Shown here: piece after piece, positions 16,274-58,957 of the stretch | Position numbering within the stretch: position 1 is the stretch's first letter | How the letters are laid out: the number at the start of each line of letters is the position of its first letter | Source of the DNA: Abditibacterium sp. | Lineage (GTDB): Bacteria; Armatimonadota; Abditibacteriia; Abditibacteriales; Abditibacteriaceae | Length of the DNA stretch: 64,000 bases | Assembly (NCBI GenBank): GCA_965246885.1 | Contig: OZ251992.1 | Coordinates: forward strand, 864,001-928,000 | Reading direction: 5' to 3' | The notes under the pieces: model-generated | What the model was told of the DNA's origin: nothing | The model's database searches: none | The model's input: the letters and a program-made list of their open reading frames with translations, nothing else | Made by a program: the position numbers and the translations under genes

Positions 16274-16514
16274 GAATAATTAGGGGGCGCGGCAACGCGA
16301 CGGGCTAATTCTCCGGCTGACACACCTAATTGCTCGAAAGAATTAGCTAAATAAAAGGGAAATTAGGTGACCCAATCAAAGAACCAAGCGCCGGAGTCGA
16401 AGAATTAGATGTGTCAGTCGTCCAGAGAGGTGTGTCAGTCGTCGAAAGAGGTGTGTCAGCCGTCGAAAGAGGTGTGTCAGTCGTCGAAAGAGGTGTGTCA
16501 TCTGGAGAATTAGC
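16274..16514. repeat. 21-bp-period array, family A (GAAGAATTAG / GTGTGTCAG)
   Basis: GTGTCA(G) at 16411, 16432, 16453, 16474, 16495; (G/A)A(A/G)GAATTAG-like cores at 16274, 16337, 16358, 16399, 16504. Confidence 0.9.
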
Positions 16515-17622
16515 TGGGTGAGCCTTCCAGTTGGCTCAGTCCCCGCACCATCTGTGCGTCTGCTTCGATGCGCACGACTTCTCCCAACCGCGCGGGTACG
16601 ACGAAGAAGACACTTGTGCCGCGATTCTTTTTGTCGAGCGTCATCGCGCGCCACGCGGCCTCGAAATCGAGGTTGGGAGCGCGGGTGGGCAATCCGGCGC
16701 GCTCGAAAAGGCGGGTCTGGCGGCCTATGAGTTCCTCGCCGTCCGCGCGGGATATGGTGCCGAGCGCGATGCCTAAGCGGGCTTCGACGGTCATGCCGAC
16801 GGCGATGGCTTCGCCGTGCAGCCATGTGCCGCGCCCATCCCCCGCGTGGAGGGCCTCAAGCGCGTGGCCGAAGGTGTGACCGTAATTGAGCGTGGCGCGG
16901 CGCCCGACAGCATCGGACTCGCGCTCGTCTTGGCCAACGACTTCCGCTTTGATTTCGCACGAGCGTTGGATGGCGTAACTGACTGCGTCGGCGTCGAGGG
17001 CGAGCAGGGCGTCGAGGTTATTTTCCAGCCACGCGAAGAAAGCGGCATCGGCGATGACGCCGTATTTGATGACCTCAGCTAGCCCCGCTCCCAATTCGCG
17101 CCGGGGCAAGGTGCGGAGGCAGAGGGGGTCAACGAGGACGCCGACCGGTTGCCAGAAGGCGCCTAAGAGGTTCTTGGCGCGCGGGTGGTTGACGCCGGTT
17201 TTGCCGCCCACACTGGAATCCACCATCGCCAACAGCGTTGTCGGGACTTGCACCCACGACACGCCGCGCATCCACGTCGCCGCCACGAACCCCGCCAAAT
17301 CGCCCGTGACCCCGCCGCCCACCGCCCAGACCGCGCCGCGCCGCCCAAAGCCTGCTTCGGCGAGCGCATCGAACGCGCGCGCGGCGGTGTCGAGCGTTTT
17401 GGCCGATTCGCCCTCGCCCATGTCGAAGCGCACCACCCGTTGCCCGCGCGCCTCCAATCGGGCCGCGAGCGCGTCGGTTATAAGCGGCCCCAGCGTCGCG
17501 TTAGAGATGAGCGCGATTTCTCCGGGGAAAGCCGCGTCGGGCAAACCGTCGAGCGTGCCAAGCGCGCCCGCTTGGATGGTGATGGAATAAGAGCGTTCGC
17601 CCAAAGCAACGGGAATCTTCAT
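16510..17622 (-). CDS. aroB: 3-dehydroquinate synthase
   Basis: GGGVTGDLAGFVAATWMRG, VPTTLLAMVDSSVGGKTGVN and LNYGHTFGHALE. Confidence 0.96.
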   Translation of the reverse strand: MKIPVALGERSYSITIQAGALGTLDGLPDAAFPGEIALISNATLGPLITDALAARLEARGQRVVRFDMGEGESAKTLDTAARAFDALAEAGFGRRGAVWAVGGGVTGDLAGFVAATWMRGVSWVQVPTTLLAMVDSSVGGKTGVNHPRAKNLLGAFWQPVGVLVDPLCLRTLPRRELGAGLAEVIKYGVIADAAFFAWLENNLDALLALDADAVSYAIQRSCEIKAEVVGQDERESDAVGRRATLNYGHTFGHALEALHAGDGRGTWLHGEAIAVGMTVEARLGIALGTISRADGEELIGRQTRLFERAGLPTRAPNLDFEAAWRAMTLDKKNRGTSVFFVVPARLGEVVRIEADAQMVRGLSQLEGSPS

Positions 17623-17664
17623 GCCTTGCAGTGTGCGCGCATCCGCCACACTGTTCGCCACGTT

Positions 17665-20346
17665 ATGCCGCAAACGGAATTAGTCGCCCAGCTACGCGCC
17701 CGCCTCGATGAGGGGCGCGCGCGTTTATGGAAGAAGCACGCGTGGAACAGCCCGATTCGTCCTTGGTTGCAGGAATACTCGGCCTTGGTGGACGAGGTGC
17801 TCACGCGCATCTACCACGAAGCGTGGGCCAAAGCGCGGACGGCGCTGCCTGCTGAAGATCACGAAGCCTCCGCGAACGAGCCGACGCTTGTGCTCCTCGC
17901 CGTCGGCGGCTATGGGCGCTCGGAATTGTGCCCGCACTCCGATATAGACATCGCTTTCGTGCCATCGGAGGAAGAAAACCCCCTGCTGGACTTGGTCATC
18001 AAAGAGGCGTTCCGCCTCATCGTCGAAGTGCTCATTGACGGCGCGAAGATGGAGGTGAGTTCCCCGTATCGGCCCATCTCCGACATCGAGCGCTTAGATC
18101 ACCCCTCCAAAGCGGCGCTTCTCGAAGCGCGGCGCATCGCGGGTAGCGAGAAGTTGGTGCAGGCGGTGCGCGACGAGGTGGCGCGCACGTGGGACGCGGT
18201 TGAGTTCGCCTTGGAAAAAAGCGCCGAGCGGCGGCGGCGTTTCGAGCGCATCGGCCTGTCGCAATATGCCGTCGAGCCGCAGCTAAAAGAGGGCGCCGGG
18301 GGGTTGCGCGACGTTCACTTCGCCCTCTGGAGCGCGGCGGCGCTCCTCAAGACCGACGCGCCGATGAAGGAACTCGTCTCGCGGGGGGTGGTGCTCCAAG
18401 ACGACGCCGCGCGCGTCGAAAGCGCGACCGACTTCTTGCTCAAGTTGCGCGTGTGGCTCCACCTGCGCACTGGGCGCCGCACCGATGTGCTGCGGCTCGA
18501 ATTTCAAGACCGCATGGCGCGCGATCTCTCCTACGTCGGCGCGGGCGGTTTGGCCTCACAAAGCCTGCTGGCCGACTTCTACGCGCACGCCGAAGCCGTC
18601 GCCCGCTTTTGCGACCGCGTGCTCGCGCGCCTGTTGGAAGGGCCATTGCCCTTCGACTCGCACTTCGTCGCCAATCACGGCCAACTGCGCACCGAGCACC
18701 CCTACACCCTTGTCAACCACCCCGAACTCTTACTGACGCCCTTCGCCCTCGCGCGCAAGTATGGCTTCACTTTCGCGCCCTCGCTCGACCGCGCCCTCGA
18801 CGACCTCGTGCCCCACATAGATAGCGACTCGCGGCGCCACCCGCACATGCGGAGCGCCTTCTTCCAGCTTATCGGCGACATCGGCAACTCCGCCGCCGTC
18901 CTCACGGAACTGCGCGCGCGCGGCGCCTTGCAAGCCCTCATTCCCGAAATGACCGCCATGCTGCGCCTCGCGCCCCCCGACCCCTCGCACGAACTGTCGG
19001 TCGGGGAGCACTCCATTTATGCCGTGCGCCAACTGGACGAACTGTGGCGCAAGCGATTAAGCGACGACGAGGTGTATTCCCTCTGGAACGGCGTCGAGGA
19101 CGTGGAACTGCTGGTGCTGGCCACCCTCCTCCACGACGTCGGGAAGATCGAACCGAACACCGACCACGCCGTGTCCGGTGAGCGCTTGGGCACCCGCATC
19201 GCCGAACGGCTGGGGTTGTCGCCGCCACGCACCGCGACTCTGAAGCTCCTCATCCTGCGCCACTTGCTTTTGCCCCGCATCGCACGCCTGCGCGACTTGG
19301 GTGCGGGTGCCACCATCCGCCGCGTTGTCAGTTACGTCCGCGACGTGCCCACGCTCAAGATGCTGTATCTGCTTTCCCTCGCGGACACGTGCGCAGTTGG
19401 CGAGAAGTCGTACTCGCACCTCGATTTAGGAGCCATGCGCGAACTGTACGAGAAGTGCCTGCTCGCCATGACGCGCGCCGAAAACGCCGAAGTGCTCAGC
19501 GACGAAGAGAAGCGCGAGCAACAAGTCCAGCAAGAGCGCGAGCGCATGCGCCGTGACCTGCGCCACCTCGAACTCGACGACGCCACCCTCCAGCGCCTGT
19601 CCAATACCCTCCCCGCCGCCTACGTCCTCAACACGCCGATGCCAACGATGGCCACGCACCTCAAGTTCCTCGACCAGTTGCCCGACGATAAGCTCATCGT
19701 GGACTTTTACCCCCTCCAAAGCCGTAACTTCGCCGAAATGACCGTTGTCGCCTACGACCACGAGAAGCCCGGCCTACTCTCGAAAATCTGCGGCGTCGTT
19801 TACGCGGGCGGCGCGGAAATCGTGTCGGCGCAGGTCTACACCCTGCGCGGCCACGACCTCAACTCCAAGTGGGCGACCGGCGCCCCCGATTATGGGCGCG
19901 ATGTCGTGCTCGACCGCTTGCACCTCATCTCCGGCGGCAAGTCCCTCACGGGTGCGCAAACCGCGAAGATGGCCGCCATGATGCGCGAAGCCCTCATAGA
20001 CGAAAAGCCCATCGCCGATATTCTGCGCGGCGCCGGAAAGAAGGCCGCCCAGTCGGTCGTCACCAGCAAAATCTCCGCGCGCAACGACCTGAGCGACGAA
20101 CACACCGTCCTCACCCTCGTGTGCGACAACGTCCCCGGCCTCTTGTATCACATCGCCCGCGCCTTCGCCGCCCTCGACCTCGACATTCACACCGCCAAAG
20201 TCACCACGTGGGGCGGCCAAGCCGAAGACGCCTTTTACCTCACCCACCGCACCGCCGACGGCCAGAGCCTCAAACTGAGCGACGACGACATCAAAGGCAC
20301 CATCGAAGCCCTCAAAAAGAAACTGCTCAAGCCGGGGAAGGAGTGA
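17665..20346 (+). CDS. glnD: PII uridylyltransferase / uridylyl-removing enzyme
   Basis: AVGGYGRSELCPHSDID, EPQLKEGAGGLRD, HD motif LLHDVGK, two C-terminal ACT domains (PGLL...TAKVTTWG). Confidence 0.9.
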   Translation: MPQTELVAQLRARLDEGRARLWKKHAWNSPIRPWLQEYSALVDEVLTRIYHEAWAKARTALPAEDHEASANEPTLVLLAVGGYGRSELCPHSDIDIAFVPSEEENPLLDLVIKEAFRLIVEVLIDGAKMEVSSPYRPISDIERLDHPSKAALLEARRIAGSEKLVQAVRDEVARTWDAVEFALEKSAERRRRFERIGLSQYAVEPQLKEGAGGLRDVHFALWSAAALLKTDAPMKELVSRGVVLQDDAARVESATDFLLKLRVWLHLRTGRRTDVLRLEFQDRMARDLSYVGAGGLASQSLLADFYAHAEAVARFCDRVLARLLEGPLPFDSHFVANHGQLRTEHPYTLVNHPELLLTPFALARKYGFTFAPSLDRALDDLVPHIDSDSRRHPHMRSAFFQLIGDIGNSAAVLTELRARGALQALIPEMTAMLRLAPPDPSHELSVGEHSIYAVRQLDELWRKRLSDDEVYSLWNGVEDVELLVLATLLHDVGKIEPNTDHAVSGERLGTRIAERLGLSPPRTATLKLLILRHLLLPRIARLRDLGAGATIRRVVSYVRDVPTLKMLYLLSLADTCAVGEKSYSHLDLGAMRELYEKCLLAMTRAENAEVLSDEEKREQQVQQERERMRRDLRHLELDDATLQRLSNTLPAAYVLNTPMPTMATHLKFLDQLPDDKLIVDFYPLQSRNFAEMTVVAYDHEKPGLLSKICGVVYAGGAEIVSAQVYTLRGHDLNSKWATGAPDYGRDVVLDRLHLISGGKSLTGAQTAKMAAMMREALIDEKPIADILRGAGKKAAQSVVTSKISARNDLSDEHTVLTLVCDNVPGLLYHIARAFAALDLDIHTAKVTTWGGQAEDAFYLTHRTADGQSLKLSDDDIKGTIEALKKKLLKPGKE

Positions 20347-20379
20347 GATGACAACCTGACACGCCAAGATCAAGCGGAG

Positions 20380-20454
20380 AGATACCTATCTCCCCGCGCG
20401 GAATCCGTATTTCTTTGGAAGAAACCGGTATTTTGCGCGGGGAGATCCGTATTC
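20380..20454. repeat. 21-bp-period array, family B (AAATCCGTATTT-like core)
   Basis: Cores AGATACCTATCT (20380), GAATCCGTATTT (20401), AAACCGGTATTT (20422) and AGATCCGTATTC (20443). Confidence 0.75.
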
Positions 20455-20585
20455 CAAGCGATGCTTTGTGTAGTTGCGCGCAGGCAGGAGGTCTTTCCCT
20501 CGAAGAGGGAGGAAGAAACTTAATCCTGCTTTAAAGTTGCTGTGGCAAAGTGGAGGGGCGCCGCAACGCCCGGCACACCATCTCC

Positions 20586-22589
20586 ATGAAAAACAACCGA
20601 AGCCAAAGGCGCAGCCACTTTCATGCCTTGCGTTGGCCGCTTTGTGCGGCGATGTCTGTGGGGAGCTTGATGCTAACGCCGCGCATGGGCCACGCGGGTA
20701 GTTGGTCTGTGTCGCTGGATCACAATGGGCAGTCGGATAGTAGCGCGGGCCAAGGCCAGACCAAGGGCCATGTCTGGGTGTGGCAGAACCCCGCCGGTGG
20801 AGAAGATGACAGCTATGAGGGGCATGGCTCTGGGAGTGGCCCACTGGATATGGGCCAAACGCAAACGGGGAGCGTCGCTGGGAACTTCACCCTCGTGCTG
20901 CGCTGGACGCCCTCGGCCAAAGGCGAGAAGATTCCGCCGTTTGTGGGCGTGTGGTTCTGGCAAGAGGCAACGGGCGAGGGTGGGCGGTCGGACTTGGGCG
21001 AGCCAAACGGCTACAATGGGCAGGGGTTGAGGGGCACGCCCGGCAGCGTCACCTTGACCACGCGCGCCGCCGCCCCCGATGGCAAGAGCTACTCGGACGC
21101 AACCCACGCGCAGAAAGCACCCAACGACCCCCACTACACACAGTTCTCCAGCTACTCGGTGACGCCCGTCAGCTTCCTCACCATCTCCACCCAAGGCGCC
21201 TCGCCCACCCACAACAGCGTCACCAAGACCGATGGCTCGTTGTATGTGACGTATGCCATGCCCCCGCTCAGCGCCACCTTACGCGTCACAATGGGCAGGT
21301 ATCCCGACCCAGCGTATGATGGGGGTGAGCAGGGGGACAATGTAACAGCCACAGTAGGCGTGCTTCCCCACTACGCCCTCGACCCGCACCAACTCTGGAT
21401 TAGCTCCGACATCGAACCCAGCTACAAGAAATTCACGGCGCCTTTGCCTCCGGCCCCTAATCCTCTTCCCGACTACTGCTACCGGAAGAACCCCGACGGT
21501 AGCTTCAAGACGGACGGTGCGGGCAGTCGCCAAATGGACATCGGAGCGGGGCGCCCCGTGTTGTGGGCTGACTCCAAGAACGGTCTTTACGCTATCCAGT
21601 GCCAGCGTAATCCCGATGGTTCGGTGGCCGTAGAAAGTGCGGCCAAAATGGATTCTTTCTCAAAGAACTGGTTCGCATGGAATTACTTCACGGCCAACAC
21701 AGTCGGGTTCCCGTCGCGTACTACCTACAAATGGAGTCTCGATGGCTCCTTCGTCGGCCCGGAGTTTCACGACTCTCAGGACAACTCTATTGTAGCCAAT
21801 GGTGGCGACGCTAAAAATATGCATCTCGCTAAAGGCATCAACAGTGGAGGCGTTCTTGTTGGCGGCGAATCACATGTCGAGTTGGGCGGTTCATCGGGAG
21901 CAATTGCTTCAAGCAGCTCTGCAAGAGTCAATGTGGCTGACCCCAACGGCGTCTCATTGGCAAGCTCCTATAACATCAATTGGCACTATCCCTTTGAGCC
22001 GTATCACAAACGGCCCAACATCCACCACTTCACATGGCGCACCGCTTTAAGTCAAGTGGATGACGGAGCCAACTTCAGCCTTGCCAACGGTGCCGCTAAG
22101 TCTCAGCAAAATCCTTATCAAAGGCAGGAAGAATCCTTCGTCCCAGTTGCAAAAGCAGGGATGGATGGTGTAGATCAGGTTTCTGGCTACCTTCCAGCCG
22201 GAAAGGACATTGCCGAAATTCTGACCAAACTGGGTGGCAAGGCTGTTGACTGGTATGTGGAAAAGAACTTCCCTACCAAATCACAGCACTTCACGAACGT
22301 CGCCGAAGCGTGGGCCTACTCGATACAGCATCAGCAGTCCGGCAATAGCGAAGGGGATGATCCCGCGCCCATCGTGGACTTAGTGCCTTCTGATCTTCTT
22401 TCCGATCCAGATGGGTGGATTTACTGTACCCATCAAGTTTTCGAGATCGTCCATACGCGCCGCGAAAGTTGGGACGCCGATGCGTATAACGGTCATGGAT
22501 ATGTCGCCCACAATGAGATCGTCAATGCAGATGAAGCTCTCGGTGTAACCGTCGAAATCCAATTCAAGGAGGTGAGGAAAAAACCATGA
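20586..22589 (+). CDS. Large secreted hypothetical protein
   Basis: Basic N-terminus plus hydrophobic signal-like segment; Gly/Ser/Thr/Asn-rich; no family recognised. Confidence 0.7.
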   Translation: MKNNRSQRRSHFHALRWPLCAAMSVGSLMLTPRMGHAGSWSVSLDHNGQSDSSAGQGQTKGHVWVWQNPAGGEDDSYEGHGSGSGPLDMGQTQTGSVAGNFTLVLRWTPSAKGEKIPPFVGVWFWQEATGEGGRSDLGEPNGYNGQGLRGTPGSVTLTTRAAAPDGKSYSDATHAQKAPNDPHYTQFSSYSVTPVSFLTISTQGASPTHNSVTKTDGSLYVTYAMPPLSATLRVTMGRYPDPAYDGGEQGDNVTATVGVLPHYALDPHQLWISSDIEPSYKKFTAPLPPAPNPLPDYCYRKNPDGSFKTDGAGSRQMDIGAGRPVLWADSKNGLYAIQCQRNPDGSVAVESAAKMDSFSKNWFAWNYFTANTVGFPSRTTYKWSLDGSFVGPEFHDSQDNSIVANGGDAKNMHLAKGINSGGVLVGGESHVELGGSSGAIASSSSARVNVADPNGVSLASSYNINWHYPFEPYHKRPNIHHFTWRTALSQVDDGANFSLANGAAKSQQNPYQRQEESFVPVAKAGMDGVDQVSGYLPAGKDIAEILTKLGGKAVDWYVEKNFPTKSQHFTNVAEAWAYSIQHQQSGNSEGDDPAPIVDLVPSDLLSDPDGWIYCTHQVFEIVHTRRESWDADAYNGHGYVAHNEIVNADEALGVTVEIQFKEVRKKP

Positions 22590-23392
22590 GCCGCTCACTA
22601 TCTGCTATTCTTGTGATCCCTCTTGTAGTCGGATGTTTTAATCCATGTCACGCCGAAAATCCGGCAGAACAAGCCTTCATGCACGCTGCTATGGAGGATT
22701 CCATCAATCCCAAGTGGCTGACTCAAGATTGGGATGAGAAGGCAAACAAGCCTTACGTCGCCAAGGCTCTTGATGTTGAGAGGCTGTTGCAAAAGAAGGC
22801 GACTCCTGCTGTCATCCTCAAAAGATACGAGGGAGTGGCGCGCAAACAACCGACCAACAGCCTCGCCATCTTCTCTTGGGTGTATGCGCGTTACCGTCTG
22901 GTGGAGGCAGAGCGGATAAAGAAGCCTTTGTCTCAAGTGTGCGAGGAACTCTACAAAGTTCTGGTCATGGCTCCCGCACCGCCTTCTGCCGAATACACTC
23001 GGTTGCGCTTCAAGGTCGAGGCTAACACCCACTTGGCCTCACACTTGTCACAAATCGGCCCACGCCTGATTGCCCGTTACAAGAATGACCGCTCTTTGCT
23101 GCTGTGCTATAGCGCCGTCGTAGGCGACAGCAACAGCGAGGCTGGCGTGCATAACGACTACGCGATGGTCAAAAAATTCCCCAAAGACCCGGCCTTCCGA
23201 TGGAACTTGGCGATGGATTTGTCTACTTTGGCATGGAAGAAACGAGATGCTAAGCTACTCGATGCCAGTGAACTTCAGTTCAAGGTGTTCGAGAAGTTGG
23301 CTCCGCCCAATTATTCTTTGCGGCGCTATCTACCGAACGCGAGAGAATACATTCGGCGCAAGCGGCTGAGATTTGCTGGAAAGACCCCTTGA
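22586..23392 (+). CDS. Exported helical hypothetical protein
   Basis: Signal-like MSRSLSAILVIPLVVGC; ATGA overlap with the previous gene. Confidence 0.7.
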   Translation: MSRSLSAILVIPLVVGCFNPCHAENPAEQAFMHAAMEDSINPKWLTQDWDEKANKPYVAKALDVERLLQKKATPAVILKRYEGVARKQPTNSLAIFSWVYARYRLVEAERIKKPLSQVCEELYKVLVMAPAPPSAEYTRLRFKVEANTHLASHLSQIGPRLIARYKNDRSLLLCYSAVVGDSNSEAGVHNDYAMVKKFPKDPAFRWNLAMDLSTLAWKKRDAKLLDASELQFKVFEKLAPPNYSLRRYLPNAREYIRRKRLRFAGKTP

Positions 23393-24435: not shown

Positions 24436-24487
24436 GGGTTTTGTGAAAGAGGAAGGGGACGAGCGAACTCCTAAACGCCGCGCCGCC

Positions 24488-24565
24488 GTCATTCTGAGCC
24501 TGCGAAGGATTTTAGGTCACGCTATCCGCGCAGTCACTATAGATCCTTCGCAAGCTCAAGATGAC
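24488..24565. repeat. Palindromic REP/MITE-like element (same family as 56819-56900)
   Basis: GTCATTCTGAGCCTGCGAAGGATTT ... AGATCCTTCGCAAGCTCAAGATGAC imperfect inverted repeat. Confidence 0.8.
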
Positions 24566-27848: not shown

Positions 27849-27970
27849 CAGACGTCCGCCGAGCGGTGACAGACGTCCGCCGAGCGGTAACAGACGTCCG
27901 CCGAAGAGGGACAGACGTCTGGGATTGTTCCGCCGCCCTCTGTCACCGAATCCCGCGCCTCTGTCACCGA
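27849..27970. repeat. 21-bp-period array, family C (CAGACGTCCGC)
   Basis: CAGACGTC at 27849, 27870, 27891, 27912; inverted CCTCTGTCACCGA at 27937 and 27958. Confidence 0.88.
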
Positions 27971-41762: not shown

Positions 41763-41940
41763 GAAGAATTAACTAACTCCCCGGAGAGTTAGCTAATTCT
41801 TCGACTGACAGACCTCTGTCTGCCGAAGAATTATATGCGCCAGTCAAAGAGGAAGGTGATTCTTCCGCCGACACACGTAATTCTTCGGAAGAATTACGTA
41901 GTTCCCTCGAAGAATTAGCCGTCTCTTCGGAAGAATTACC
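41763..41940. repeat. 21-bp-period array, family A
   Basis: GAAGAATTA at 41763, 41825, 41888, 41909, 41930; GGAGAGTTA at 41783; inverted TAATTCTTC; CTGACAGAC/GACACAC half-units. Confidence 0.82.
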
Positions 41941-41951: not shown

Positions 41952-42416
41952 ATGCCGCAACGACCTCTGCAATTTGGCGCCATCGCTGGCGTTCTGGAAG
42001 GCCAGACTTTTGCCAATCGCCGCGAAGTTTTCGAGGCGCGCTTGCACCGCTCTCTGCTCGCGGGCATCTCCGGCACCGCGCGCGACGGGAGTGACGCGGT
42101 TATCGTGTCCGGCGGCTACGAAGATGACGACGACCGAGGCGACACGCTCATTTATACCGGCGAGGGCGGGCGCAACCCCCAAACCGGCGAACAAATCGCG
42201 GGGCAAATCCTCGTTAAAGGCAACCTCGCCTTGGAAAGGAGCCGCATCAACGGCCTCCCCGTCCGCGTCATTCGCGGCGCCGCCGCCAAGTCCCGCTTCG
42301 CCCCCCAAGAAGGCTACCGCTACGACGGCCTCTACCGCGTGAGGCGCTCATGGCCCGAAAAGGGCAAGTCGGGCCACATCGTGTGGCGCTTTGAACTGCG
42401 TAAGGAGGACGGGTAG
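41952..42416 (+). CDS. Stand-alone SRA/YDG domain protein
   Basis: AGISG, VIVSGGYEDDDDRGDTLIYTGEGG, GNLAL, PVRVIRG, YRYDGLYRV. Confidence 0.9.
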   Translation: MPQRPLQFGAIAGVLEGQTFANRREVFEARLHRSLLAGISGTARDGSDAVIVSGGYEDDDDRGDTLIYTGEGGRNPQTGEQIAGQILVKGNLALERSRINGLPVRVIRGAAAKSRFAPQEGYRYDGLYRVRRSWPEKGKSGHIVWRFELRKEDG

Positions 42417-43790: not shown

Positions 43791-45911
43791 CTACCGGCGA
43801 CCAGTCGCCGTCGCCAGAATTTCCTCTTGGATATTGCTCGGCACTGGTTCGTAGTGGCTTGGCTCCATTGTGTAGGTGGCGCGGCCTTGGGTGAGCGAGC
43901 GCATGGTCGTCGCGTAGCCGAAGAGTTCGGAGAGCGGGACTTGCGCGCGCACGATTTGGGTGCCGCCTTTGTCGGGGCGCATTTCGTTGATGCGTCCTCT
44001 GCGGCTCGACAGGTCGCCGATGATGTCGCCCATGTTGGCGTCAGGGGTGACGACTTCCATTGACATGATCGGTTCGAGAATCACCGGTTTGGCTTTGCGG
44101 GCCGCTTCGCGCAGTCCTTCGGCTCCGGCGATTTCAAAGGTCATCGCGTTCGAGTCCACTTCGTGATACGATCCGTGAACCAGTTCCACGCGCACGTTCA
44201 CGAGCGGATAGCCCGCCAACACGCCGCGTTCGAGAGCGGACTTGGCGCCCTTTTCGACGCTCGGCCAGAACTCGCGGGGGACGACGCCGCCCACGACTTT
44301 CGACTCGAACTCGAAGTTGTTCTGCTTGCCGTTCTCGTCCGCGACCGTCGGCATCACGTTGATGACGATGTGCGCGAACTGGCCCGAACCGCCCGACTGC
44401 TTGACGTGCTTGTAGGTCAACTCCTTGACCGTGCCTTGGATGGTCTCGCGGTAGGCGACTTGCGGCTTGCCGATGTTGGCCTCGACCGCGTATTCGCGCT
44501 TCATGCGATCCACCATGATTTCCAAGTGCAACTCGCCCATGCCGCCGATGATGGTCTGGCCCGTTTCTTTGTCGTTGCGGACTTTGAAGGTCGGGTCTTC
44601 CTGCGTGAGCTTGATGAGAGCGTCGGTCATCTTGTCCGCGTCGTTGCGAGTTTTCGCTTCGATGGACTGGAAGATAACCGGCTCGGCGAAGTTGATGTTT
44701 TCGAGAACAATCGGGTTGTTCTCGTCGCACATCGTGTCACCCGTCACGGTGTCGGACAAGCCGATGGCGGCGCAGATGTCGCCCGCTTCGGCGTATTCCA
44801 CGTCTTCCTGCTTGTTGGCGTGCATCCGCAAAATGCGCGACACGCGCTCCTTTTTGTTCTTGCCCGAATTCAGGATGTAGCTGCCCTTGTTGACGCGGCC
44901 CGAATAGACGCGAAAATAGGTCAGGCGCCCGAACTTGTTGGACATGATTTTGAACGCGAGTGCCGAGAACGGGTCGTCCGGGTTCGGTTCGCGCGAGGTG
45001 CTTTCGCCGGTATCGGGGTTGGTGCCGATGATGGCGGGCGTGTCGAGCGGCGACGGCAAAAACTCGATAACCGCGTCGAGCATCGGCTGCACGCCCTTGT
45101 TCTTGTAGGACGAGCCGCAAATGACGGCGATAATGTCGTTTTGAAGCGTCGCTTTGCGGATGCCTTTGCGGACTTCCTCTTCGGTGAGTTCTTCGCCAGC
45201 GAAGAATTTCTCCATCAAGGTGTCGTCGGTTTCGGCGACGAATTCGAGCAGTTCGCGGCGATACTCCTGCGCCTTTTCCATGAGTTCGGCGGGAATCTCT
45301 TCCTCGTCGAACGTCGAGCCTAAGTCTTTGGCTTCGTTGTAGCGGATCGCCTTCATCTTGATGAGGTCAACCACGCCCGCGAAGTCGTCTTCGGCGCCGA
45401 TGGGGATTTGAAGCGGCACGGGCCGCGCGCCCAATCGCTCGCGCAGTTGGCCGACAACCTCGTAGAAGTTGGCGCCGGAGCGATCCATTTTGTTAATGTA
45501 GGCCACGCGCGGAACGCCGTAGCGGTTGGCTTGGCGCCACACGGTTTCCGATTGCGGTTGCACGCCGCCAACGGCGCAGAACACGGCGACGAGTCCATCC
45601 AAAACGCGCAAGGAGCGTTCGACTTCAACGGTGAAGTCCACGTGACCGGGCGTGTCGATGATGTTGATGGTGTGGCGCGGGTATTGGTGCGTCGAGCCGT
45701 CCCAAGTGCAGGTCGTCGCGGCACTGGTGATGGTGATGCCGCGTTCTTGCTCTTGTTCCATCCAGTCCATCGTCGCGCTGCCATTGTGGACTTCGCCGAT
45801 GCGGTGGTTGACGCCCGTGTAGAACAAGATGCGTTCGGTGGTGGTTGTCTTACCGGCATCGATGTGAGCCGCAATGCCGATGTTGCGTGTGAGCGATAGA
45901 TCTTTCGCCAT
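43791..45911 (-). CDS. fusA: Elongation factor G
   Basis: [65 protein letters not shown] before ATG 45911. Confidence 0.98.
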
Positions 45912-45983
45912 GATGTTTAAAGCCTCTCCTTTGAGGTGTGTGGGTTTCCCGTGCGCGTCCAGCAACGCTAATTTTCTCGCGTC

Positions 45984-46143
45984 GTCATTCCGACTCTCGC
46001 GCTGTCATTCGATTCTTCCGCGCTGTCATTCCGAGGGGAGCCTTGGCGACCAGAGGAATCTTATTTGAGCCGCTCGTCGGTTACAAACGAGCAGTTGCAA
46101 GTAGATTCCTCTGGTCGCCAAGGCTCCCCTCGGAATGACAGCG
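45984..46143. repeat. Palindromic REP/MITE-like element with 41-bp perfect arms and reiterated left-end units
   Basis: 46021-46061 is the exact reverse complement of 46103-46143; GTCATTC occurs at 45984, 46004 and 46025. Confidence 0.9.
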
Positions 46144-47050: not shown

Positions 47051-47133
47051 ATCCTCATTGTAACGCAAACGCCCGCGCGTGCCGAGGGGCAACTCAGCGC
47101 GCTTTTCACGCTCACGGCGCCGCACACTCCCCG

Positions 47134-47312
47134 CGTTCAACGTCCAACGCGGCGCGTTCAACATTCAATGCGGCGCGTTGAACATCCAACGGCCCGCGCT
47201 GTGCGTCTCCTACGGCTCGTTGAACGTCAAGCGGGCCGCGTTGAACTGCAAATACGGCCCATTTGCAGTTCAACGGGCCGCATTTGCAGAACAGCTTGCA
47301 CCATTTGCAGAA
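47134..47312. repeat. 21-bp-period array, family D (CGTT(C/G)AAC / CATTTGCAG)
   Basis: Nine units starting at 47134, 47155, 47176, 47197, 47218, 47239, 47260, 47281, 47302. Confidence 0.85.
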
Positions 47313-47451
47313 GCTGGCAAACTCCCGCGCGAGGTATTTCAATCAATGGCCGACAGCATCCCACAAAATCCTGAACCGGGAGTCAAGCGCGTGGACGACT
47401 TCTTAGAGACGGTCTGAAAAGGCTCTGACCGATGGCGTAATTCTTCGTTTC

Positions 47452-47610
47452 CTCTCCGTATTTTGGGCGAAGAAATACCTCCTTTCCCCGGCCAAATACG
47501 GATTTCCCCCGGAGGAATCCGTACTTGGCGGCGTCAAATCCGTATTTGGCCAGAAGAAATACGGATTTAACTCGGTCAAATCCGTATTTGACGCGGCTAA
47601 ATATGGATTC
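47452..47610. repeat. 21-bp-period array, family B (12-bp core in either orientation plus 9-bp unique spacer)
   Basis: AAATCCGTATTT- or AAATACGGATTT-like cores at 47452, 47473, 47494, 47515, 47536, 47557, 47578, 47599 (first two degenerate). Confidence 0.9.
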
Positions 47611-47696: not shown

Positions 47697-47966
47697 TCAG
47701 TCGTAAACATCCTTGCGGTCGCCGACTTCCACGACGACAACGACTAATATGCCGTCTTGAACGTCGTAGATGATGCGGTAGTCGCCGACGCGAAGGCGAT
47801 AGAATTGCGTTTTGCCCCGGAGTTTCTTGCCGCCCGATGGACGCGGTTCGAGTTCGAGGGTGTAGATTTTGTCGAAGAGCTTGTTTTGCACTTCTTCCGA
47901 CAAGCGGTTAATCTGGCGCCACGCGGGTGACTCAATTAGCACGCGGTAGGAGTGTGGTTCGTTCAT
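47697..47966 (-). CDS. RelE/ParE family toxin
   Basis: YRVLI..A.RQI..PRPSGGKKLRG..YRLRVGDYRIIY..VGDRKDVY. Confidence 0.9.
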   Translation of the reverse strand: MNEPHSYRVLIESPAWRQINRLSEEVQNKLFDKIYTLELEPRPSGGKKLRGKTQFYRLRVGDYRIIYDVQDGILVVVVVEVGDRKDVYD

Positions 47967-48196
47967 CGCCCCAAAGCCTTGCGCCAATCGTCCAAAGTTT
48001 TGCGTTGCGACGGGTCGCTATTCGCCAAGATGCGCTCGGCTTCGGCGGCGTCCACTTCGTCCTCCAACTCTTCGAGCAACTCCTCGGTCGGCTCTGGGTA
48101 AAGCGCGACGACTTCCTCAAACGGGATACCACGCTCTTTGGCGACATCTGCAAAAACGTTCTGGGCGTAGCGGGAGAGGGTGGCGGTAGGTGTCAT
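47963..48196 (-). CDS. Putative antitoxin, toxin-proximal copy
   Basis: Acidic EELLEELEDEVD..TLDDWRK; ATGA overlap with the toxin. Confidence 0.75.
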   Translation of the reverse strand: MTPTATLSRYAQNVFADVAKERGIPFEEVVALYPEPTEELLEELEDEVDAAEAERILANSDPSQRKTLDDWRKALGR

Positions 48197-48205
48197 CTGT
48201 TGAGT

Positions 48206-48472
48206 TTACTGAGCGAGAAGATGATGGGGTTTCGCGCTCCGGTTGGCGATGTAGGCGCGCAAATCATCGAGCGTGTAGCGTTCGTTCGGGTCATCTTCCA
48301 ACCGCGCGCGGCGTGCGGCGGCGACATCCAATTCGTCTTCCAATTCTTCCAGCGCCTCTTCGGAGAAATCGAGGCAACTCGCCACGACTTCTTCGAGCGA
48401 CACGCCGCGTTCTTTGGCGACGGCGCGGAGCAGACTTTCCACTTCGGGCTTGAGTTCGAGGGGCAAGGTCAT
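48206..48472 (-). CDS. Putative antitoxin, second paralogous copy
   Basis: Shares VAKERG..EEVVA..LEELEDE.D..DP..R.TLDD.R with 47963-48196. Confidence 0.72.
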   Translation of the reverse strand: MTLPLELKPEVESLLRAVAKERGVSLEEVVASCLDFSEEALEELEDELDVAAARRARLEDDPNERYTLDDLRAYIANRSAKPHHLLAQ

Positions 48473-49298: not shown

Positions 49299-49456
49299 AC
49301 TTCCCCTTTCTCCCGTCGGTGCGCATAATTTGGTCGCCGCCCGGGGTCGGTGAAAGAAAGCGCGGGGTCATTGGACGACCCGTTTATGCCGGTCAACGTT
49401 TGATGTGTACCGGCGAATGAGTCGCCCATGCCGGTGAACGGTTGCGCGGGGCCGTT

Positions 49457-50989: not shown

Positions 50990-51601
50990 TCACTCTTCTC
51001 TAATGGAAGCTGGACGCAGGGGGAGCACGTCGGGTACATCCAATTCGTCGTAGATGTCGGCGAGGGAGAGTTCGATGCCCACGCTGTCCAACTCTATCAC
51101 CTCGCCGCGCCCGTCGTAAGACCGGTGCACCCAGTTTGCCCCCTGCCGCGAGAAGTGCTCGACCCACACGCGGTCTTGCTCTATAAGGATGTACTCCTCG
51201 AAGGTGGGAATGGTTTTGTAGAGCGCGAACTTGCCCGTGCGGTCGTAGTTTTGGGTGGAATCCGACAGCACCTCGAAGATGACCTTGGGAGTCAGCAGGG
51301 CGGAGTCGCCCTTGCCAACGAACCGCGACGGCGGGCAGAAGATAACCGCATCGGGATAAACCTCCTTCCCGTTCGACTCGGCTTTGACGCGCATCTCCGA
51401 ACTGCGCGCCTTGCACGGCTTGCCCCGCAAAGCCTCCTTCGCAGCAGCCGCGACGTTGGTGCAGATGGTGGCGTGATTGAAAGTCCCACCCGCCATAGCG
51501 AACACTTCGCCATCGAGCCACTCGTGTTTGACCGTCGAAATCTCCTCGCCCTCGCGGTACTCTTCCTCGGTGATGTAGTCGAACTGGCGCTGCGCGTTCA
51601 T
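50990..51601 (-). CDS. Uma2 family endonuclease
   Basis: GEVFAMAGG, YPDAVIFC, IFEVLSDSTQNYDRTGKF; paralog of 14656-15231. Confidence 0.9.
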   Translation of the reverse strand: MNAQRQFDYITEEEYREGEEISTVKHEWLDGEVFAMAGGTFNHATICTNVAAAAKEALRGKPCKARSSEMRVKAESNGKEVYPDAVIFCPPSRFVGKGDSALLTPKVIFEVLSDSTQNYDRTGKFALYKTIPTFEEYILIEQDRVWVEHFSRQGANWVHRSYDGRGEVIELDSVGIELSLADIYDELDVPDVLPLRPASIREE

Positions 51602-52277: not shown

Positions 52278-52366
52278 ATAAGCCCGTGTCGTCGCGCCCT
52301 GAGGCGCGGCTGAGGGCCACCCTTGGCACCCGCACGGAAAGCAGACACACGTTTCCGCCCGTTGCC

Positions 52367-53356: not shown

Positions 53357-53371
53357 TTTAGTTACGTAACT

Positions 53372-53404
53372 AAAAAGCGCGCCGTTTTGATGAATGGCGC
53401 GCTT
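53372..53404. terminator. Hairpin between convergent genes
   Basis: AAAAAGCGCGCCGTT-loop-AATGGCGCGCTT. Confidence 0.72.
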
Positions 53405-53588: not shown

Positions 53589-53598
53589 GAGAATTGAT

Positions 53599-54172: not shown

Positions 54173-54248
54173 GTGGCAAGCGCCCGGAAATTTCGTAAAA
54201 TGGACGGCACAGGACGCGAAGTGACGGCAAATGACGCGAAGTGGCGGA
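54173..54248 (+). promoter_or_regulatory. dcw promoter and candidate MraZ operator
   Basis: GTGGCA - 17 nt - TAAAAT (54196), then G(A/G)CG boxes at 54203, 54213, 54223, 54233, 54243 (10-bp period). Confidence 0.62.
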
Positions 54249-54342
54249 TTTCGGAATTCCTTCCGGAGACGCCATCAGAACCGAGTTTTTCGTTGCCAAC
54301 GCCCCCTCGCAGGTGGAACGTTTTCCTGCTTCGTATGCGACC

Positions 54343-55029
54343 ATGCCCCGCGCCATCGCCATCAAAGGCGAAGACAAACCGGACGCCCCGTCCGTGATCG
54401 TTCCCGTTCCGGTCATGACCGGGACGCACTTTCACGGGTTGGACGACAAAGGCCGCATTATCATCCCCGCCAAATTACGGGCGGGGCTGACGGAGCGATT
54501 CTGGATGATGCTCGACGAAAACGATAACGTGGCCATGTATGATTTCCAAACAGGGCTGGACGTTCTCGCTTACTGCGAGCGCCAGATGGCGGACAATCCA
54601 AACGACGAGTTTATCGCGGCGGCGGTGGAGCGTATCACCGGCGCAGCGGAACAAACCCAAGTAGAGAACGATTCGTGGCGCGTCCCCGTTTCCGACATTC
54701 TGCGCTTATACGCGGGCATCGAAAAAGAGGTCGTGTCAGTGGGTGTGTTGAACAAAGCGGTGATGTGGTCGCGGGAACGCTGGGAGGAAGCGCAACAAAA
54801 GCGCGAATCGCCCGAAGTTCGCCGCGCTCAAGCCGGGATGTTGCGCGCTGCGGCCAGTCAGGTCAAAAAACCGGGCGTGCCGCAAGCGCCAGAAGTGGAA
54901 GTCGTGGAGGAAGTGGCCGCCAATGCAACCGGAACAGAAGGCAATGGAACAAGGGGAGCGGCGGTTGCATCCACCGGCAATGGTGGCAGAGGTTCTCGCG
55001 TTCTTACGCTGTCAACAATTGGCAGATAA
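54343..55029 (+). CDS. mraZ: Division/cell-wall cluster repressor MraZ
   Basis: GTHFHGLDDKGRIIIPAKLR, second repeat RVPVSDILRLYAGI..VGV..WSRERW; precedes rsmH; start could instead be 54415. Confidence 0.88.
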   Translation: MPRAIAIKGEDKPDAPSVIVPVPVMTGTHFHGLDDKGRIIIPAKLRAGLTERFWMMLDENDNVAMYDFQTGLDVLAYCERQMADNPNDEFIAAAVERITGAAEQTQVENDSWRVPVSDILRLYAGIEKEVVSVGVLNKAVMWSRERWEEAQQKRESPEVRRAQAGMLRAAASQVKKPGVPQAPEVEVVEEVAANATGTEGNGTRGAAVASTGNGGRGSRVLTLSTIGR

Positions 55030-56173
55030 GGACTCGCCCCTTTACCAACCGGACGCCGTGTTTTTGGACGGGACGCTGGGAAGTGGCGGGCACACACTCG
55101 CACTCTTGAAAGCTCATCCGACCTGCCGCGTGGTCGCTTTTGACCGCGACGGCGAATCGCAGAAAATCGCGCTCGAACGCCTTCAATCGGAAGGGGTCGC
55201 CGAGCGCGTGACGGCGGTGCAGGGCGATTTTCGCCAAGCGCCGTCGCTTTTGGAACCGTTCTTTGAAAACCAGAAGGTCGGAAGTGATGGCAGGCCAATC
55301 AAGGGGATTGATGGCGCATTAGTGGACGCGGGAATGAGTCTGATGCAGGTGTTCTGGCCCGAACGGGGCTTGAGCTTCCGCGAAGACGGCCCGCTCGATA
55401 TGCGCTACAATCGGACGAGTGGCCCCACCGCTGCCGATCTCGTGAACCGGCTTTCGCAGACCGAGTTGGAAGACATGTTCTTCCAACTCACCGACGAGAG
55501 ATGGGCGCGCCGCATCGCATTATTCATCGCAGAACAACGCCGCAGTCAACCCATTCGCACCACGTTGGAACTCGCCCGAATTGTCGAAAAGGCCATCCCT
55601 GCTTCTGTGCGCCGTTCGTCGCGCGTTCACCCCGCGACCAAAACTTTCGCCGCTTTACGCATTGTCGTAAACGACGAGTTTTGGGCACTCGACGACGGAG
55701 CACAATCACTCAGCAGTGTGTTGTCACCTTCAGCAAGACTGGTCGTTCTCACTTACAGCAGCAACGAAGACCGCACTTTAAAACGCACCTTTCGCCGCCT
55801 TGCGGGGCGCGAGGAGGAGGAATCCGATGGGTTCTTTCTTCACGCAACCAAGCCTCGCCGTTCTGCCGGGTTCTCCAGACCCCGACAAGACGAACAAGCG
55901 GCGCGCTCATCTCTCGCCCAACTTTTCCCCCATAGGGATAACTTTACCCGAAATCCACTTGAATTGCCATTCAAAACGGAACTTTCGGCCCAAAAATTAG
56001 AAAATCCGGTTCACATCGGCTCGGATGGCTTGGGTGTGACGTGGAAAATGACCACGCTCACGCGCAAACCGGTCGAGCCAACCGAAGCCGAAATCGCAGC
56101 AAATCCGCTCGCCCGCTCCTGTAAGTTGCGTGCCGCAGAAAAAGTCTCTCTCGAAGCGCCACAAACGCCCTAA
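54923..56173 (+). CDS. rsmH: 16S rRNA m4C1402 methyltransferase
   Basis: LHPPAMVAEVL, DGTLGSGGH, DAGMS, SFREDGPLDMR, HPATKTFAALRIVVNDE, NPLARSCKLR; start 54923 or 54944. Confidence 0.92.
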   Translation: MQPEQKAMEQGERRLHPPAMVAEVLAFLRCQQLADKDSPLYQPDAVFLDGTLGSGGHTLALLKAHPTCRVVAFDRDGESQKIALERLQSEGVAERVTAVQGDFRQAPSLLEPFFENQKVGSDGRPIKGIDGALVDAGMSLMQVFWPERGLSFREDGPLDMRYNRTSGPTAADLVNRLSQTELEDMFFQLTDERWARRIALFIAEQRRSQPIRTTLELARIVEKAIPASVRRSSRVHPATKTFAALRIVVNDEFWALDDGAQSLSSVLSPSARLVVLTYSSNEDRTLKRTFRRLAGREEEESDGFFLHATKPRRSAGFSRPRQDEQAARSSLAQLFPHRDNFTRNPLELPFKTELSAQKLENPVHIGSDGLGVTWKMTTLTRKPVEPTEAEIAANPLARSCKLRAAEKVSLEAPQTP

Positions 56174-56211
56174 GACAAACACCCAAAGCATACCAAACAC
56201 GGCAGCCAGCG

Positions 56212-56763
56212 ATGCAAACCCAGAGTGTGAGCGACGGGGTTGTAACCCACACTTGGCCCGTCGCTCACGCTCTGGGTTCACAATCCCGACGCCATCACAC
56301 CATGCCCGCCGCCGCCCGCCGTCACCCTCAACCCGAAGAACTCCTCCCCTCTCCCGTCGCATCTGACTGGGAGCAATTGGCGCCGCTTGTAGACCGCTTC
56401 ACTGACCAGCGCGACGACGAGCAACGCGCCAAGCGCAAGCAGAAACTCCGCCGCCACAAGCGTTTCTTTGTCTCGTCCCTCTTCGTGGTTTCGACGCTTC
56501 TCACGCTCGAACTCGTCGCGCTCGTCGGCCTCTACGCCCTCGACTTGCGAACAATTCGCCAATCAGATCAACTCGACCGCGATATTCGGCAGGCTAATCT
56601 ACAAAAAGCTCTGATAGCCGATAAAGAAGCGGAGATGAAGGCCGCGCCCTTGCTGAACCAATGGGCGCAGGAACTCGGCTTCCAAAAGATGGATAGCTTC
56701 ACTCCATCCGATAAAGTGAACAGCGACGCGCCCATGCCGCTGCCAAAGGAAAAGAGCCGCTAA
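56212..56763 (+). CDS. FtsL-like bitopic coiled-coil protein
   Basis: Basic stretch, one TM, coiled coil, WAQELGF; lies between rsmH and the PBP gene; start uncertain. Confidence 0.65.
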   Translation: MQTQSVSDGVVTHTWPVAHALGSQSRRHHTMPAAARRHPQPEELLPSPVASDWEQLAPLVDRFTDQRDDEQRAKRKQKLRRHKRFFVSSLFVVSTLLTLELVALVGLYALDLRTIRQSDQLDRDIRQANLQKALIADKEAEMKAAPLLNQWAQELGFQKMDSFTPSDKVNSDAPMPLPKEKSR

Positions 56764-56818
56764 CTATTAGCCGCGAGGCACGCCGCCAAGTCGCAAGCTA
56801 TGATTCCAAGGCAGAACT

Positions 56819-56900
56819 CCGTCATCCTGAGCTTGCGAAGGATCTCGCGTTACTCCGACGAGAGCGTGACTTGAGATCCTTCGCAAGCTCAGGATGACGG
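56819..56900. repeat. Palindromic REP/MITE-like element with 28-bp perfect arms
   Basis: CCGTCATCCTGAGCTTGCGAAGGATCTC ... GAGATCCTTCGCAAGCTCAGGATGACGG. Confidence 0.9.
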
Positions 56901-56967
56901 GGCGCTGCTTCTGGCGAGACCGTCCTCACACCCACCACCGCCCACATCACACCCATTCATCGCCGCC

Positions 56968-58824
56968 ATGACCCATCCCCGCACCATCGCCAAAACTTCT
57001 CAGCACCGCATTGAGCGTGTCTTTTATGTCTTCGCCGCAGCGTTTCTGGTGTGCGGCGGGCGCGTGGCTTGGTTGCAAATGGCCTCGCACGCGGCGACGG
57101 CCAAGGGGCCGGACGCGGCTTTTGAAAAGGCGCTGCTGCTTCCGGCGCGGCGCGGGCAACTGCTCGCGCGCGACGGGACGGCGATGGCCGTGACCATTGA
57201 CGAATACACCGTTGCCGCCAACCCGCGCGGCTGGTCGCGCGAGGAAAAAGACCGCGCCTCGGCAATTTTGGCCGCGACTTTGGGCGCCCCCCAAGCGGCT
57301 ATGCGCGCCAAGTTGGATGAAGTCAACAAACTGGGCGGCGCGAAGAACTACTACGTCAAACTCGCGCAGCACGTGGATGAGACGCACGCCGACGCCTTGC
57401 GGAAAGTAATGGGGCCGCAGCCCAAAGAAACGCGCAAGGACAGGTCGGCGCGCAAGAAGTTCTGGGAAACGCTTTCCCTCGAAGCGTCGCCGCGTCGCCA
57501 TTATCCGCTCGGTCAATTCGCGCCGCAATTGATCGGTTTCACCACCAATTCGGGACTTGGCGCCGATGGCATGGAAGCGGCGTGGCAAAAAACACTCGGC
57601 GGCACGAACGGCGAGCGCGAGGCTTTGGTGGACGCGCAGGGCCGCGCGGTTCCCGGAACGGTGCGCGTATGGCGCGAGCCGTCCGACGGGCTGTCGGTGC
57701 AAACCACCATCGACCCGAAAATCCAACAGGCCGCCGACGACACGCTGCGGGCGACCTACGAGAAATATCACCCGAACTTCTGCGTCGCCGTCGTTCTCAA
57801 ACCCGACACCGGCGAGATCGTGGCGATTTCGACCGCGCCCGGATATGACCCGAACGCGCGCCCGAAAAACATCGTGGACATCACGACCAATCGCGCGTTT
57901 TCCTACGCCTACGAACCCGGCTCGACGTGGAAAATCATCACGGCTTCGGCGGCGGTCGAAACCATCCCGAACTGGCAATCGAAGAGCTTCTACATAGACG
58001 GCCAAGCGCAAGCGGGCAACCACACCATCCACGATTGGCAGTTCTGGGGCGGGCACGTCCAACCCGGAATGAAGGGCCTGTCCGAGGGCATCCGCGACAG
58101 TTCCAACGTGTGTATGTGGCATTTCGCGCAGCTTATGCCGCGCGATACTTTGCCCAACTACGCCCGCAAATTTGGCGTCGGAACCAAGCCCAGTCTGCCC
58201 GGTTTCAACGTTTCCAAAGGCTACTTGCCGCGCTCGGACGCCAAAACGTGGTCAATGGCGCAGTGGGCGAACTTCTCGTTCGGGCAGGGCATGATGATTA
58301 CCCCGCTCCAACTCGCCCAAATCGGGTCGGTGATTGCCAACGATGGCGTAATGATGAAGCCAATGCTGGTCAAGTCCATCCGCGACGCGCGCGGCCAAAC
58401 GGTCAAGGCGTTCAAGCCACAAGTAGACCACCGCGTCATTCAAGCGGCAACGGCGCGCACCGTCAAGACCATGTTGCGCCGCGTTGTCGCCGAAGGGACG
58501 GCGCGCAAATACATCTTCATCCCCGGCTACGCGGCGGCGGGCAAAACCGGCTCGGCCCAAAAAGCGGTCGGCAAAAAGGGCTATGCGGCGGGCAAATTCA
58601 TCTCCTCGTTTGTGGGCATGATTCCCCTCGACCGCCCCAAATACGTCATCGCAGTCATGGCCGACGAGCCGCACGGCAGTCACTGGGGGTCGGAAGTCTG
58701 CGGCCCCGCGTTTACCAATATCGCCCAAGAAGCCGTCACCTCGATGCGCTTGGAAGACGGCCCCCGCGCTCCGGCGCCCGACGCCAATTTAATGGAGCGC
58801 CCTGCCGCGCCAGAGAAGCATTAG
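56968..58824 (+). CDS. ftsI: Class B penicillin-binding protein (FtsI/SpoVD-like)
   Basis: PARRGQLLARDG, RHYPLG, EPGSTWK (SxxK), SSN, GKTGS; dcw context. Confidence 0.85.
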   Translation: MTHPRTIAKTSQHRIERVFYVFAAAFLVCGGRVAWLQMASHAATAKGPDAAFEKALLLPARRGQLLARDGTAMAVTIDEYTVAANPRGWSREEKDRASAILAATLGAPQAAMRAKLDEVNKLGGAKNYYVKLAQHVDETHADALRKVMGPQPKETRKDRSARKKFWETLSLEASPRRHYPLGQFAPQLIGFTTNSGLGADGMEAAWQKTLGGTNGEREALVDAQGRAVPGTVRVWREPSDGLSVQTTIDPKIQQAADDTLRATYEKYHPNFCVAVVLKPDTGEIVAISTAPGYDPNARPKNIVDITTNRAFSYAYEPGSTWKIITASAAVETIPNWQSKSFYIDGQAQAGNHTIHDWQFWGGHVQPGMKGLSEGIRDSSNVCMWHFAQLMPRDTLPNYARKFGVGTKPSLPGFNVSKGYLPRSDAKTWSMAQWANFSFGQGMMITPLQLAQIGSVIANDGVMMKPMLVKSIRDARGQTVKAFKPQVDHRVIQAATARTVKTMLRRVVAEGTARKYIFIPGYAAAGKTGSAQKAVGKKGYAAGKFISSFVGMIPLDRPKYVIAVMADEPHGSHWGSEVCGPAFTNIAQEAVTSMRLEDGPRAPAPDANLMERPAAPEKH

Positions 58825-58842
58825 GTCATTCGTCGCGTGGTG

Positions 58843-58957
58843 GATGTCCGCGACGCCGCTACAGACGTCCGCGACGCCGCTACAGACGTCCGCGACGCCG
58901 CTACAGACGTCCGCGACGCCGCTACAGACGTTCACAGCGCGGTGCGGGACGTCCCTG
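58843..58957. repeat. 21-bp tandem array, family C
   Basis: GACGTCCGCGACGCCGCTACA-type units at 58843, 58864, 58885, 58906, with degenerate units at 58927 and 58948. Confidence 0.92.

Follow-up and report, generated by a model that had tools for sequence, protein, structure and literature searches.

Tandem repeats of 20-21 nt whose unit is constant in size and variable in sequence were described in bacteria by Subirana and Messeguer, their function unexplained, and a DNA-polymerising protein was proposed for them (PMC8161180). The present analysis concerns tandem arrays with a 21-bp period in the genome of an Abditibacterium sp. (GCA_965246885.1; G000), including those in a 64,000-nt stretch of contig OZ251992.1 (C1:864001-928000, hereafter the window). 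Like the published repeats, as described in the available text of that paper, the arrays have a fixed unit length, form several species-specific families, are non-coding and have short words in common; unlike them, they keep strictly to 21 bp, or to 22 bp in one subfamily. The traits of constant-size repeats were found here: constant length with variable sequence in several families, species specificity (1 of the 31 genomes of the taxonomic class) and a generally non-coding location (243 intergenic against 24 in-gene arrays). The arrays belong to this published but unexplained group. A link to partner genes, which encode a helix followed by a fibronectin type III (Fn3) domain, and an exclusion zone around each array are apparently undescribed: no published account of either was found in a literature of which subscription papers were thinly covered. 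The main text of PMC8161180 does not contain 'orientation', 'palindrom' or 'evenly', and no partner gene, exclusion zone or in-gene replacement was noticed in it. As far as was seen, the additions made here are exclusion without a lattice, near length-neutral replacement within genes, a 22-bp subgroup and a second genome dense in arrays.

Other described repeats resemble the arrays in part. BrickBuilt of Porphyromonas gingivalis (PMC4596501) is likewise a tandem unit that is species-specific and intergenic and, at 23 nt, close to two helical turns, but the available portion of that paper describes one sequence with a leader and a tail, inverted ends, 19 copies and an always intergenic position, none of which applies here. 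The multicopy sequences of Geobacter (PMC2996986, PMC2700814) are clustered, with several repeats in 31% of the regions they occupy, and neither a fixed 21-bp period nor a partner gene was noticed in the accessible parts of those papers. HIP1 of cyanobacteria is, like the arrays, abundant within and between genes and has had a nucleoid role proposed for it; as presented in the available part of PMC5861425, however, it is a single conserved octamer with a 10-90 kb periodicity, whereas the arrays are variable, lineage-patchy and without long-range period. The accessible portion of PMC6749651 concerns something related but different. CRISPR arrays combine identical repeats with unique spacers, whereas here variable units follow one another head to tail without spacers.

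The first-pass annotation of the window had proposed that unrelated sequences sharing one period reflect a common constraint, and had set a genome-wide autocorrelation beforehand as the check. This gave a clear peak at period 21. Intergenic DNA of contig C1, delimited by gene calls made for the analysis, held 385 exact 9-mer matches at lag 21 against 12 or fewer at every other lag from 8 to 41. Genome-wide, exact 10-mer matches numbered 428, 358, 265 and 198 at lags 21, 42, 63 and 84, whereas most other lags divisible by 3 gave roughly 40-75; CRISPR accounts for a further peak at lags 65-67. An orientation-aware test picked out 248 intergenic regions for period 21, whereas periods 19, 20, 22 and 23 gave 12-21. 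The strict set comprised 243 intergenic arrays after removal of three CRISPR false positives (2.53-2.54 Mb, still counted in the 235-region spacing test and in the region-type and stop-proximity counts below); the median detected span of an array was 170 bp. Some of the 24 in-gene candidates are probably spurious open reading frames of array DNA or marginal tracts, leaving about 20 real ones.

The window contains the following arrays, to which no strand is assigned, and one in-gene candidate:
16274..16514, 21-bp array of the main superfamily (family A words), which overlaps the stop of aroB and contains one 1-nt slip
20380..20454, short 21-bp array of minor family B, hairpin-forming, 34 nt past the glnD stop
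27849..27970, 21-bp array of the main superfamily (family C words), with a palindromic AC|GT axis
41763..41940, 21-bp array of the main superfamily (family A words), with direct and inverted cores 10 nt apart
47132..47312, 21-bp array, the sole locus of family D
47438..47610, 21-bp array of family B, beginning with an in-register inverted A core
49345..49455, degenerate 21-bp array having words in common with the main superfamily, at a similarity not above controls
58843..58957, 21-bp array of the main superfamily (family C words), with four identical units, 19 nt past the ftsI stop
11711..11778, plus strand, candidate 21-bp tract within the gene for ribosomal protein S1, in the part encoding its C-terminal tail, of uncertain membership

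All seven arrays annotated initially were recovered in place, with cores phase-fixed modulo 21. The 1-nt slips ascribed to family A are real (phase 0 to 20 in 16274-16514 and 16 to 15 in 41763-41940), each family has at least one array with cores on both strands, and arrays do start near gene 3' ends, with edge-to-stop distances of 4, 34, 31, 4, 87 and 19 nt for aroB, glnD, 28001, 41759, relE and ftsI, respectively. The A core at 47438 adjoins the family B array as had been noted, and is in register with the B lattice: shifted by +10, this inverted core falls on the phase that GAAGAAATA has at 47469 and at 47553, an offset also seen within A arrays. Family B thus has a near-identical core and register in common with A at this site, at a whole-unit similarity not above controls. 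The division into four separate families had to be revised, as A and C belong to one connected superfamily of 177 arrays. Family D is confined to one locus in the genome. The degenerate array near 49345-49455 had been overlooked. An Rfam search of the window gave no match.

The main superfamily is a palindromic lattice holding mixed half-units: the profile over its 21 columns agrees with the reverse-complemented profile (r 0.90), and of its 936 units 888 are distinct. Inverted 7-mer pairs lie on one phase (median 0.92 in the 126 of 243 arrays with at least six pairs, against 0.42 in random windows). Phased protein binding, one of the first-pass suggestions, may plausibly occur. Unit mosaics are typical of minisatellite turnover, and some arrays are perfect tandem copies, as neutral slippage without any partner would generate. 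Against neutral slippage stand the single period, the inverted units on one phase, and the exclusion zone and partner-gene link described below; it is refuted by the period spectrum and the spacing, and is very improbable. As 21 nt make seven codons, and several arrays are open in some frames with a heptad-like reading, remnants of heptad-repeat protein genes were also considered. This origin is largely refuted and is hardly credible: stop codons interrupt every one of the six frames in the two family A arrays, the superfamily profile matches its reverse complement, in-gene copies lie in different frames, and the existence of 22-bp arrays argues against heptad coding. The first-pass annotation had named three outcomes that would count against a shared constraint, namely no excess of period 21, cores not recurring elsewhere and an origin in heptad-repeat genes; none of them was observed.

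The arrays also avoid one another. The 235 array-bearing regions have only 4 gaps shorter than 4 kb, where 2000 null draws averaged 50 and never gave fewer than 32, and the coefficient of variation of the gaps was 0.56, compared with 0.96 for type-matched random regions. When intergenic arrays, in-gene arrays and 9 arrays added by hand from the orientation-aware test were combined and neighbours less than 1 kb apart merged (266 loci), the mean gap was 13.0 kb and the pair density rose through 0.10, 0.36 and 0.77 in the first three 3-kb bins to about 1; over the same loci there was no long-range period, and adjacent gaps were uncorrelated. Arrays are depleted up to 6-9 kb from each other and random beyond, and the pattern is therefore an exclusion zone. 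A fixed 12-14 kb lattice is disfavoured by the pair density of about 1 beyond the zone and by the lack of a long-range period.

This avoidance ignores array sequence. Non-main arrays lay within 5 kb of a main array in 7% of 81 cases, against 43% of random positions, as did 1 of the 20 arrays of three distinct minor families; in-gene arrays showed the same avoidance (3 of 24, with 61% expected), and three control families resembling repetitive extragenic palindromic (REP) sequences showed none. Because the spacing holds across sequence families and in-gene arrays and not in the REP-like controls, homology-driven deletion of close pairs fails to explain it. According to the available part of PMC7350765, Mu insertions rise near 5 kb from an existing element and reach the bulk level near 7 kb, and the depletion seen here similarly fades over about 5-7 kb before reaching bulk. 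Target-immunity-like depletion in cis over kilobases is thus present, as a static pattern only. Unlike Mu, the arrays have no transposase, AAA+ ATPase or element ends linked to them, so the likeness is a 'works like' analogy; target immunity proper involves a transposase and a target-capture ATPase acting on ends, and here there are neither ends nor a conserved neighbour gene.

Arrays within genes were examined by aligning 6 of the 24 candidates with congeners. In five of the six the array, spanning some 35-70 aa, had taken the place of native sequence with little gain in length. Measured against the closest congeners, linker length differs by +5 to +8 aa for uvrA, +10 to +15 aa for ftsK, -20 to -29 aa for a cheA-like gene, -8 to +17 aa for another, unnamed gene and +17 to +20 aa for the fifth. 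With the more distant G009 as the reference, the linker of uvrA is shorter by 9 aa and that of ftsK longer by 44 aa. The edges of in-gene arrays fade into native sequence, several reading frames are used, and the first array unit of ftsK aligns with the native SEEFP codons of one ortholog, which are already A-core-like. The near length-neutral linkers and fading edges suggest that in-gene arrays overwrote native DNA.

Two single-copy partner genes lie outside the window (C1:525622-526317 and C1:1335829-1336473, both on the minus strand), and each has a singleton array upstream, at 24 and 64 nt. For partner family A, a search of 50%-cluster representatives gave 508 relatives at E <=0.001. AlphaFold predicts a 56-residue helix followed by Fn3 for family A (predicted local distance difference test score, pLDDT, 94) and a similar plan for family B (pLDDT 88). 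Fold matches of both proteins cover the Fn3 part only, and a Pfam fn3 scan of the genome misses both genes. No NCBIfam or PADLOC family reached its cut-off for these proteins, and partner protein P0151 had no match in plasmid and phage collections. A profile comparison of families A and B reached a probability of 3% (E 0.015, Fn3 part only), so their common ancestry is not established. In family A, 4 of 128 rows have a signal-like N-terminus; positions R187 and R191 are basic in about 90%.

An array was present upstream of 33 of 45 partner-homologue loci (30 at 21 bp and 3 at 22 bp), drawn from 12 other genomes in two phyla, 9 of which have an upstream array. Controls gave 3 of 44 downstream of partner loci, 5 of 1141 in random windows and 0 of 18 upstream of Fn3-only loci. 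The loci include some from G256, which we take to be a member of the Chthoniobacteraceae (phylum Verrucomicrobiota), and from two genomes of its phylum. The upstream sequences differ between loci, even before near-identical paralogs, and no neighbour gene is conserved. Period 22 occurs at three divergent family B loci; two of the three proteins are sisters in the tree, with support of only 93/91, and the third, from G008, was left out of the tree. Two free arrays in G000 are related to the array before partner gene B, at 16.0 and 16.7 of 21, where control arrays reach at most 15.7 of 21 against the main set. As read from the sequence, partner gene B and its array belong to a type I restriction-modification locus (L078, G000:C1:520114-529394), with an HsdS-like gene on one side and a pair of AAA ATPase genes on the other.

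That the arrays and the helix-plus-Fn3 genes form one system is considered highly probable, and is better supported than either of the mechanisms set out below. The shared constraint proposed originally is borne out by the genome-wide peak, by spacing that is independent of sequence and by a pair of gene families with unrelated upstream arrays. Two helical turns is the period of this non-coding array DNA, which likely spread from a gene-plus-array module. The mechanism tentatively preferred is that a putative protein rules the arrays, which multiply through copying shifted in register, an existing array inhibiting others close to it in cis. The helix-plus-Fn3 protein would read the period rather than the sequence, assembling along the array so that each two turns carry one unit. 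Units could then be copied over adjoining DNA by host slippage or by gene conversion one register out of step, which would yield mosaics, inverted half-units and replacement rather than plain insertion. Arrays would survive where they are tolerated, just past stops and in flexible linkers, and a bound array would inhibit nucleation in cis across a DNA-loop distance of about 6-9 kb, in the manner of Mu cis-immunity. With standard rises, a length of about 71 angstrom follows for 21 bp and one of about 84 angstrom for a helix of 56 residues, a likeness that is suggestive only. A stronger form, which is possible but leans towards the doubtful, casts the putative protein as a non-enzymatic ruler: under its guidance host repair would write a two-turn pattern, whatever its sequence, over native DNA, beginning ahead of the protein's own gene and later throughout the genome, and every array would immunise the following 6-9 kb.

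If the ruler reading is true, it would account for the constant-length 20-21-nt repeats of many bacteria, and period rather than sequence would be the inherited signal. If period is read instead of sequence, DNA would be recognised in an uncommon way, and linker evolution would be subject to a new force. The candidate proteins make the open question of constant-length, variable-sequence repeats testable, and this genome also offers a natural comparison of 21 with 22 bp, a measurable exclusion distance and the uvrA and ftsK linker replacements.

Several observations weigh against copying ruled by the partner protein. No array was detectable at 12 of the 45 partner loci, and 29 of the 45 come from two genomes and are hence not independent. 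The main superfamily matches neither partner gene's array above the control level, so its source gene is missing or not recognised. Partner genes are also insufficient: G256 has about nine full-length copies and 2 arrays in 200 kb, G306 has 1 array in 200 kb, and free arrays are absent from the 69 kb of G003 and the 39 kb of G008. Overall the proteins lack a basic character (median isoelectric points 5.95 and 5.66), and they have no catalytic domain. The window itself breaks the spacing rule, since D and B are 140 bp apart, the 49345 array is within 2 kb of the others and all three fall within 2.3 kb, and B at 20380 is only 3.9 kb from an A array; exclusion in G036, the second dense genome, was not significant (3 of 18 gaps under 5 kb, about 5.3 expected). 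Within genes, one radical-SAM gene gained about 98 aa, its array replacing the last codons and the stop, and given the fast evolution of linkers, insertion with compensating deletion may explain the others.

The main rival, unlikely but to be taken seriously, is that arrays are selected nucleoid anchors, docking sites forming domains of about 12 kb, a new array being favoured only far from others. It would suit the even density (variance/mean 0.25 per 200 kb) and the acceptance of arrays in uvrA, ftsK and the cheA-like gene where no intergenic array is near. A nucleoid role is put forward in the available text of PMC8161180, and HIP1 offers a precedent in that of PMC5861425. Against anchoring stand the absence of long-range periodicity, the toleration of 25-40 kb gaps and the finding that isolation does not raise array length (rho -0.12).

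The distribution across genomes bears on both sides of this question. Period-21 arrays number 80 per Mb in G000 and 71 per Mb in G036, a member of another genus (184 kb of contigs, not chosen for partner genes), where each has a different sequence; a similar density of unrelated sequences is as anchors would have it. The sampled congeners, however, lack dense arrays. Samples of 40-400 kb from each relative gave 5 per Mb in G012, G009 and G014, 20 in G010 and 0 in G002 and G013, and the family C pattern, with 88 occurrences in G000, was absent from the 30 other genomes of the class. With sampled congeners sparse and G036 dense, the dense state is patchy and probably arose twice or was often lost. 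The array pattern had no match in viral contigs, and a comparison of X1 with X2 showed no differences in the long pieces listed. No contig of the relatives bridges an array site, and an empty allele was accordingly not seen. In G036 a few arrays have a 20-bp period (L139:3629-3895, L145:3489-3596, L150:5628-5743).

Arrays occur in 18-26% of intergenic regions, in every gene orientation (57 of 309 divergent and 145 of 768 tandem regions). In tandem regions 110 of 145 arrays are closer to the upstream stop (median 5 nt against 73 nt), and all seven window arrays fold below doublet shuffles (z -2.2 to -7.5), both of which would be expected of RNA-level elements, that is, structured 3' untranslated regions stabilising or terminating transcripts. 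Such a role is nonetheless improbable: 18% of divergent regions have arrays, in-gene arrays lie in several frames, the kilobase-scale exclusion is left unexplained, and insertions near stops are also the least harmful. A purely 3'-untranslated role, suggested by the first-pass annotation, is not supported, because arrays are equally common in divergent and tandem regions and are also found inside genes.

Movement as whole, non-autonomous elements by an HUH (Y1) or DDE transposase, like REP sequences or MITEs, was weighed against the array edges. The 147 flank pairs revealed no shared termini, inverted ends or duplications, although the edges are fuzzy and short duplications could escape; the mean match was 5.18 for direct, 5.28 for inverted and 5.29 for mismatched control flanks, and the top flank 9-mer occurred in 12 of 147. 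The conserved short palindromic unit expected of REP/REPIN sequences is lacking among so many distinct units, and partner loci have no conserved neighbour gene. A Y1 transposase gene does stand directly downstream of partner gene A, the one of five Y1 genes whose flanks were seen, and BrickBuilt is a MITE with a 23-nt minisatellite in the available portion of PMC4596501. Y1 genes, however, occur in 25 of 27 family genomes and are most abundant in array-poor ones, so their abundance does not track arrays as that of a REP-associated transposase would. Reverse transcriptase genes (1 in G000, 0 in G036, present in array-poor genomes) do not track it either, contrary to the earlier suggestion that one of these gene types might. 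All-against-all BLAST found no gene family enriched beside arrays in G000, where the partner genes are single copy. Array 16274..16514 is absent from the syntenic aroB-ubiA gap of relatives, which holds other palindromic repeats or nothing; occupation of the same niche by such repeats would favour a REP- or MITE-like element, an origin that is on the whole quite improbable. The gap (L009, L011, L012, L013, L014) has a different palindromic repeat in each congener and is an insertion hotspot.

A separate long REP-like hairpin family with GTCATTCCGAG / GTCATCCTGAGC words occurs in the window at 46021-46143, 56811-56908, 24486-24565 and 7308-7339; its 19 loci genome-wide are neither spaced nor avoid the 21-bp arrays. 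Directly after the first B array, two genes of lower GC content, encoding about 640 and 268 aa, occupy 20550-23392; neither has a match in Pfam, NCBIfam or PADLOC. A stand-alone gene of the SRA-domain family, which binds modified bases, occupies 41952-42416 and starts 12 nt after the 41763-41940 array. At 47697-48472 a ParE/RelE-family gene lies amid several small genes with a 103-nt duplicated stretch (48043, 48319), an arrangement resembling tandem toxin-antitoxin pairs. Two Uma2-family putative endonuclease genes are at 14656-15231 and 50990-51601, and the EF-G gene (43791-45965) is some 30 kb from the rpsL cluster (13030-14631), on the opposite strand. Just past the window, G000:C1:930527-930690 holds a perfect tandem repeat with a 7-nt unit, which is not one of the 21-bp arrays.

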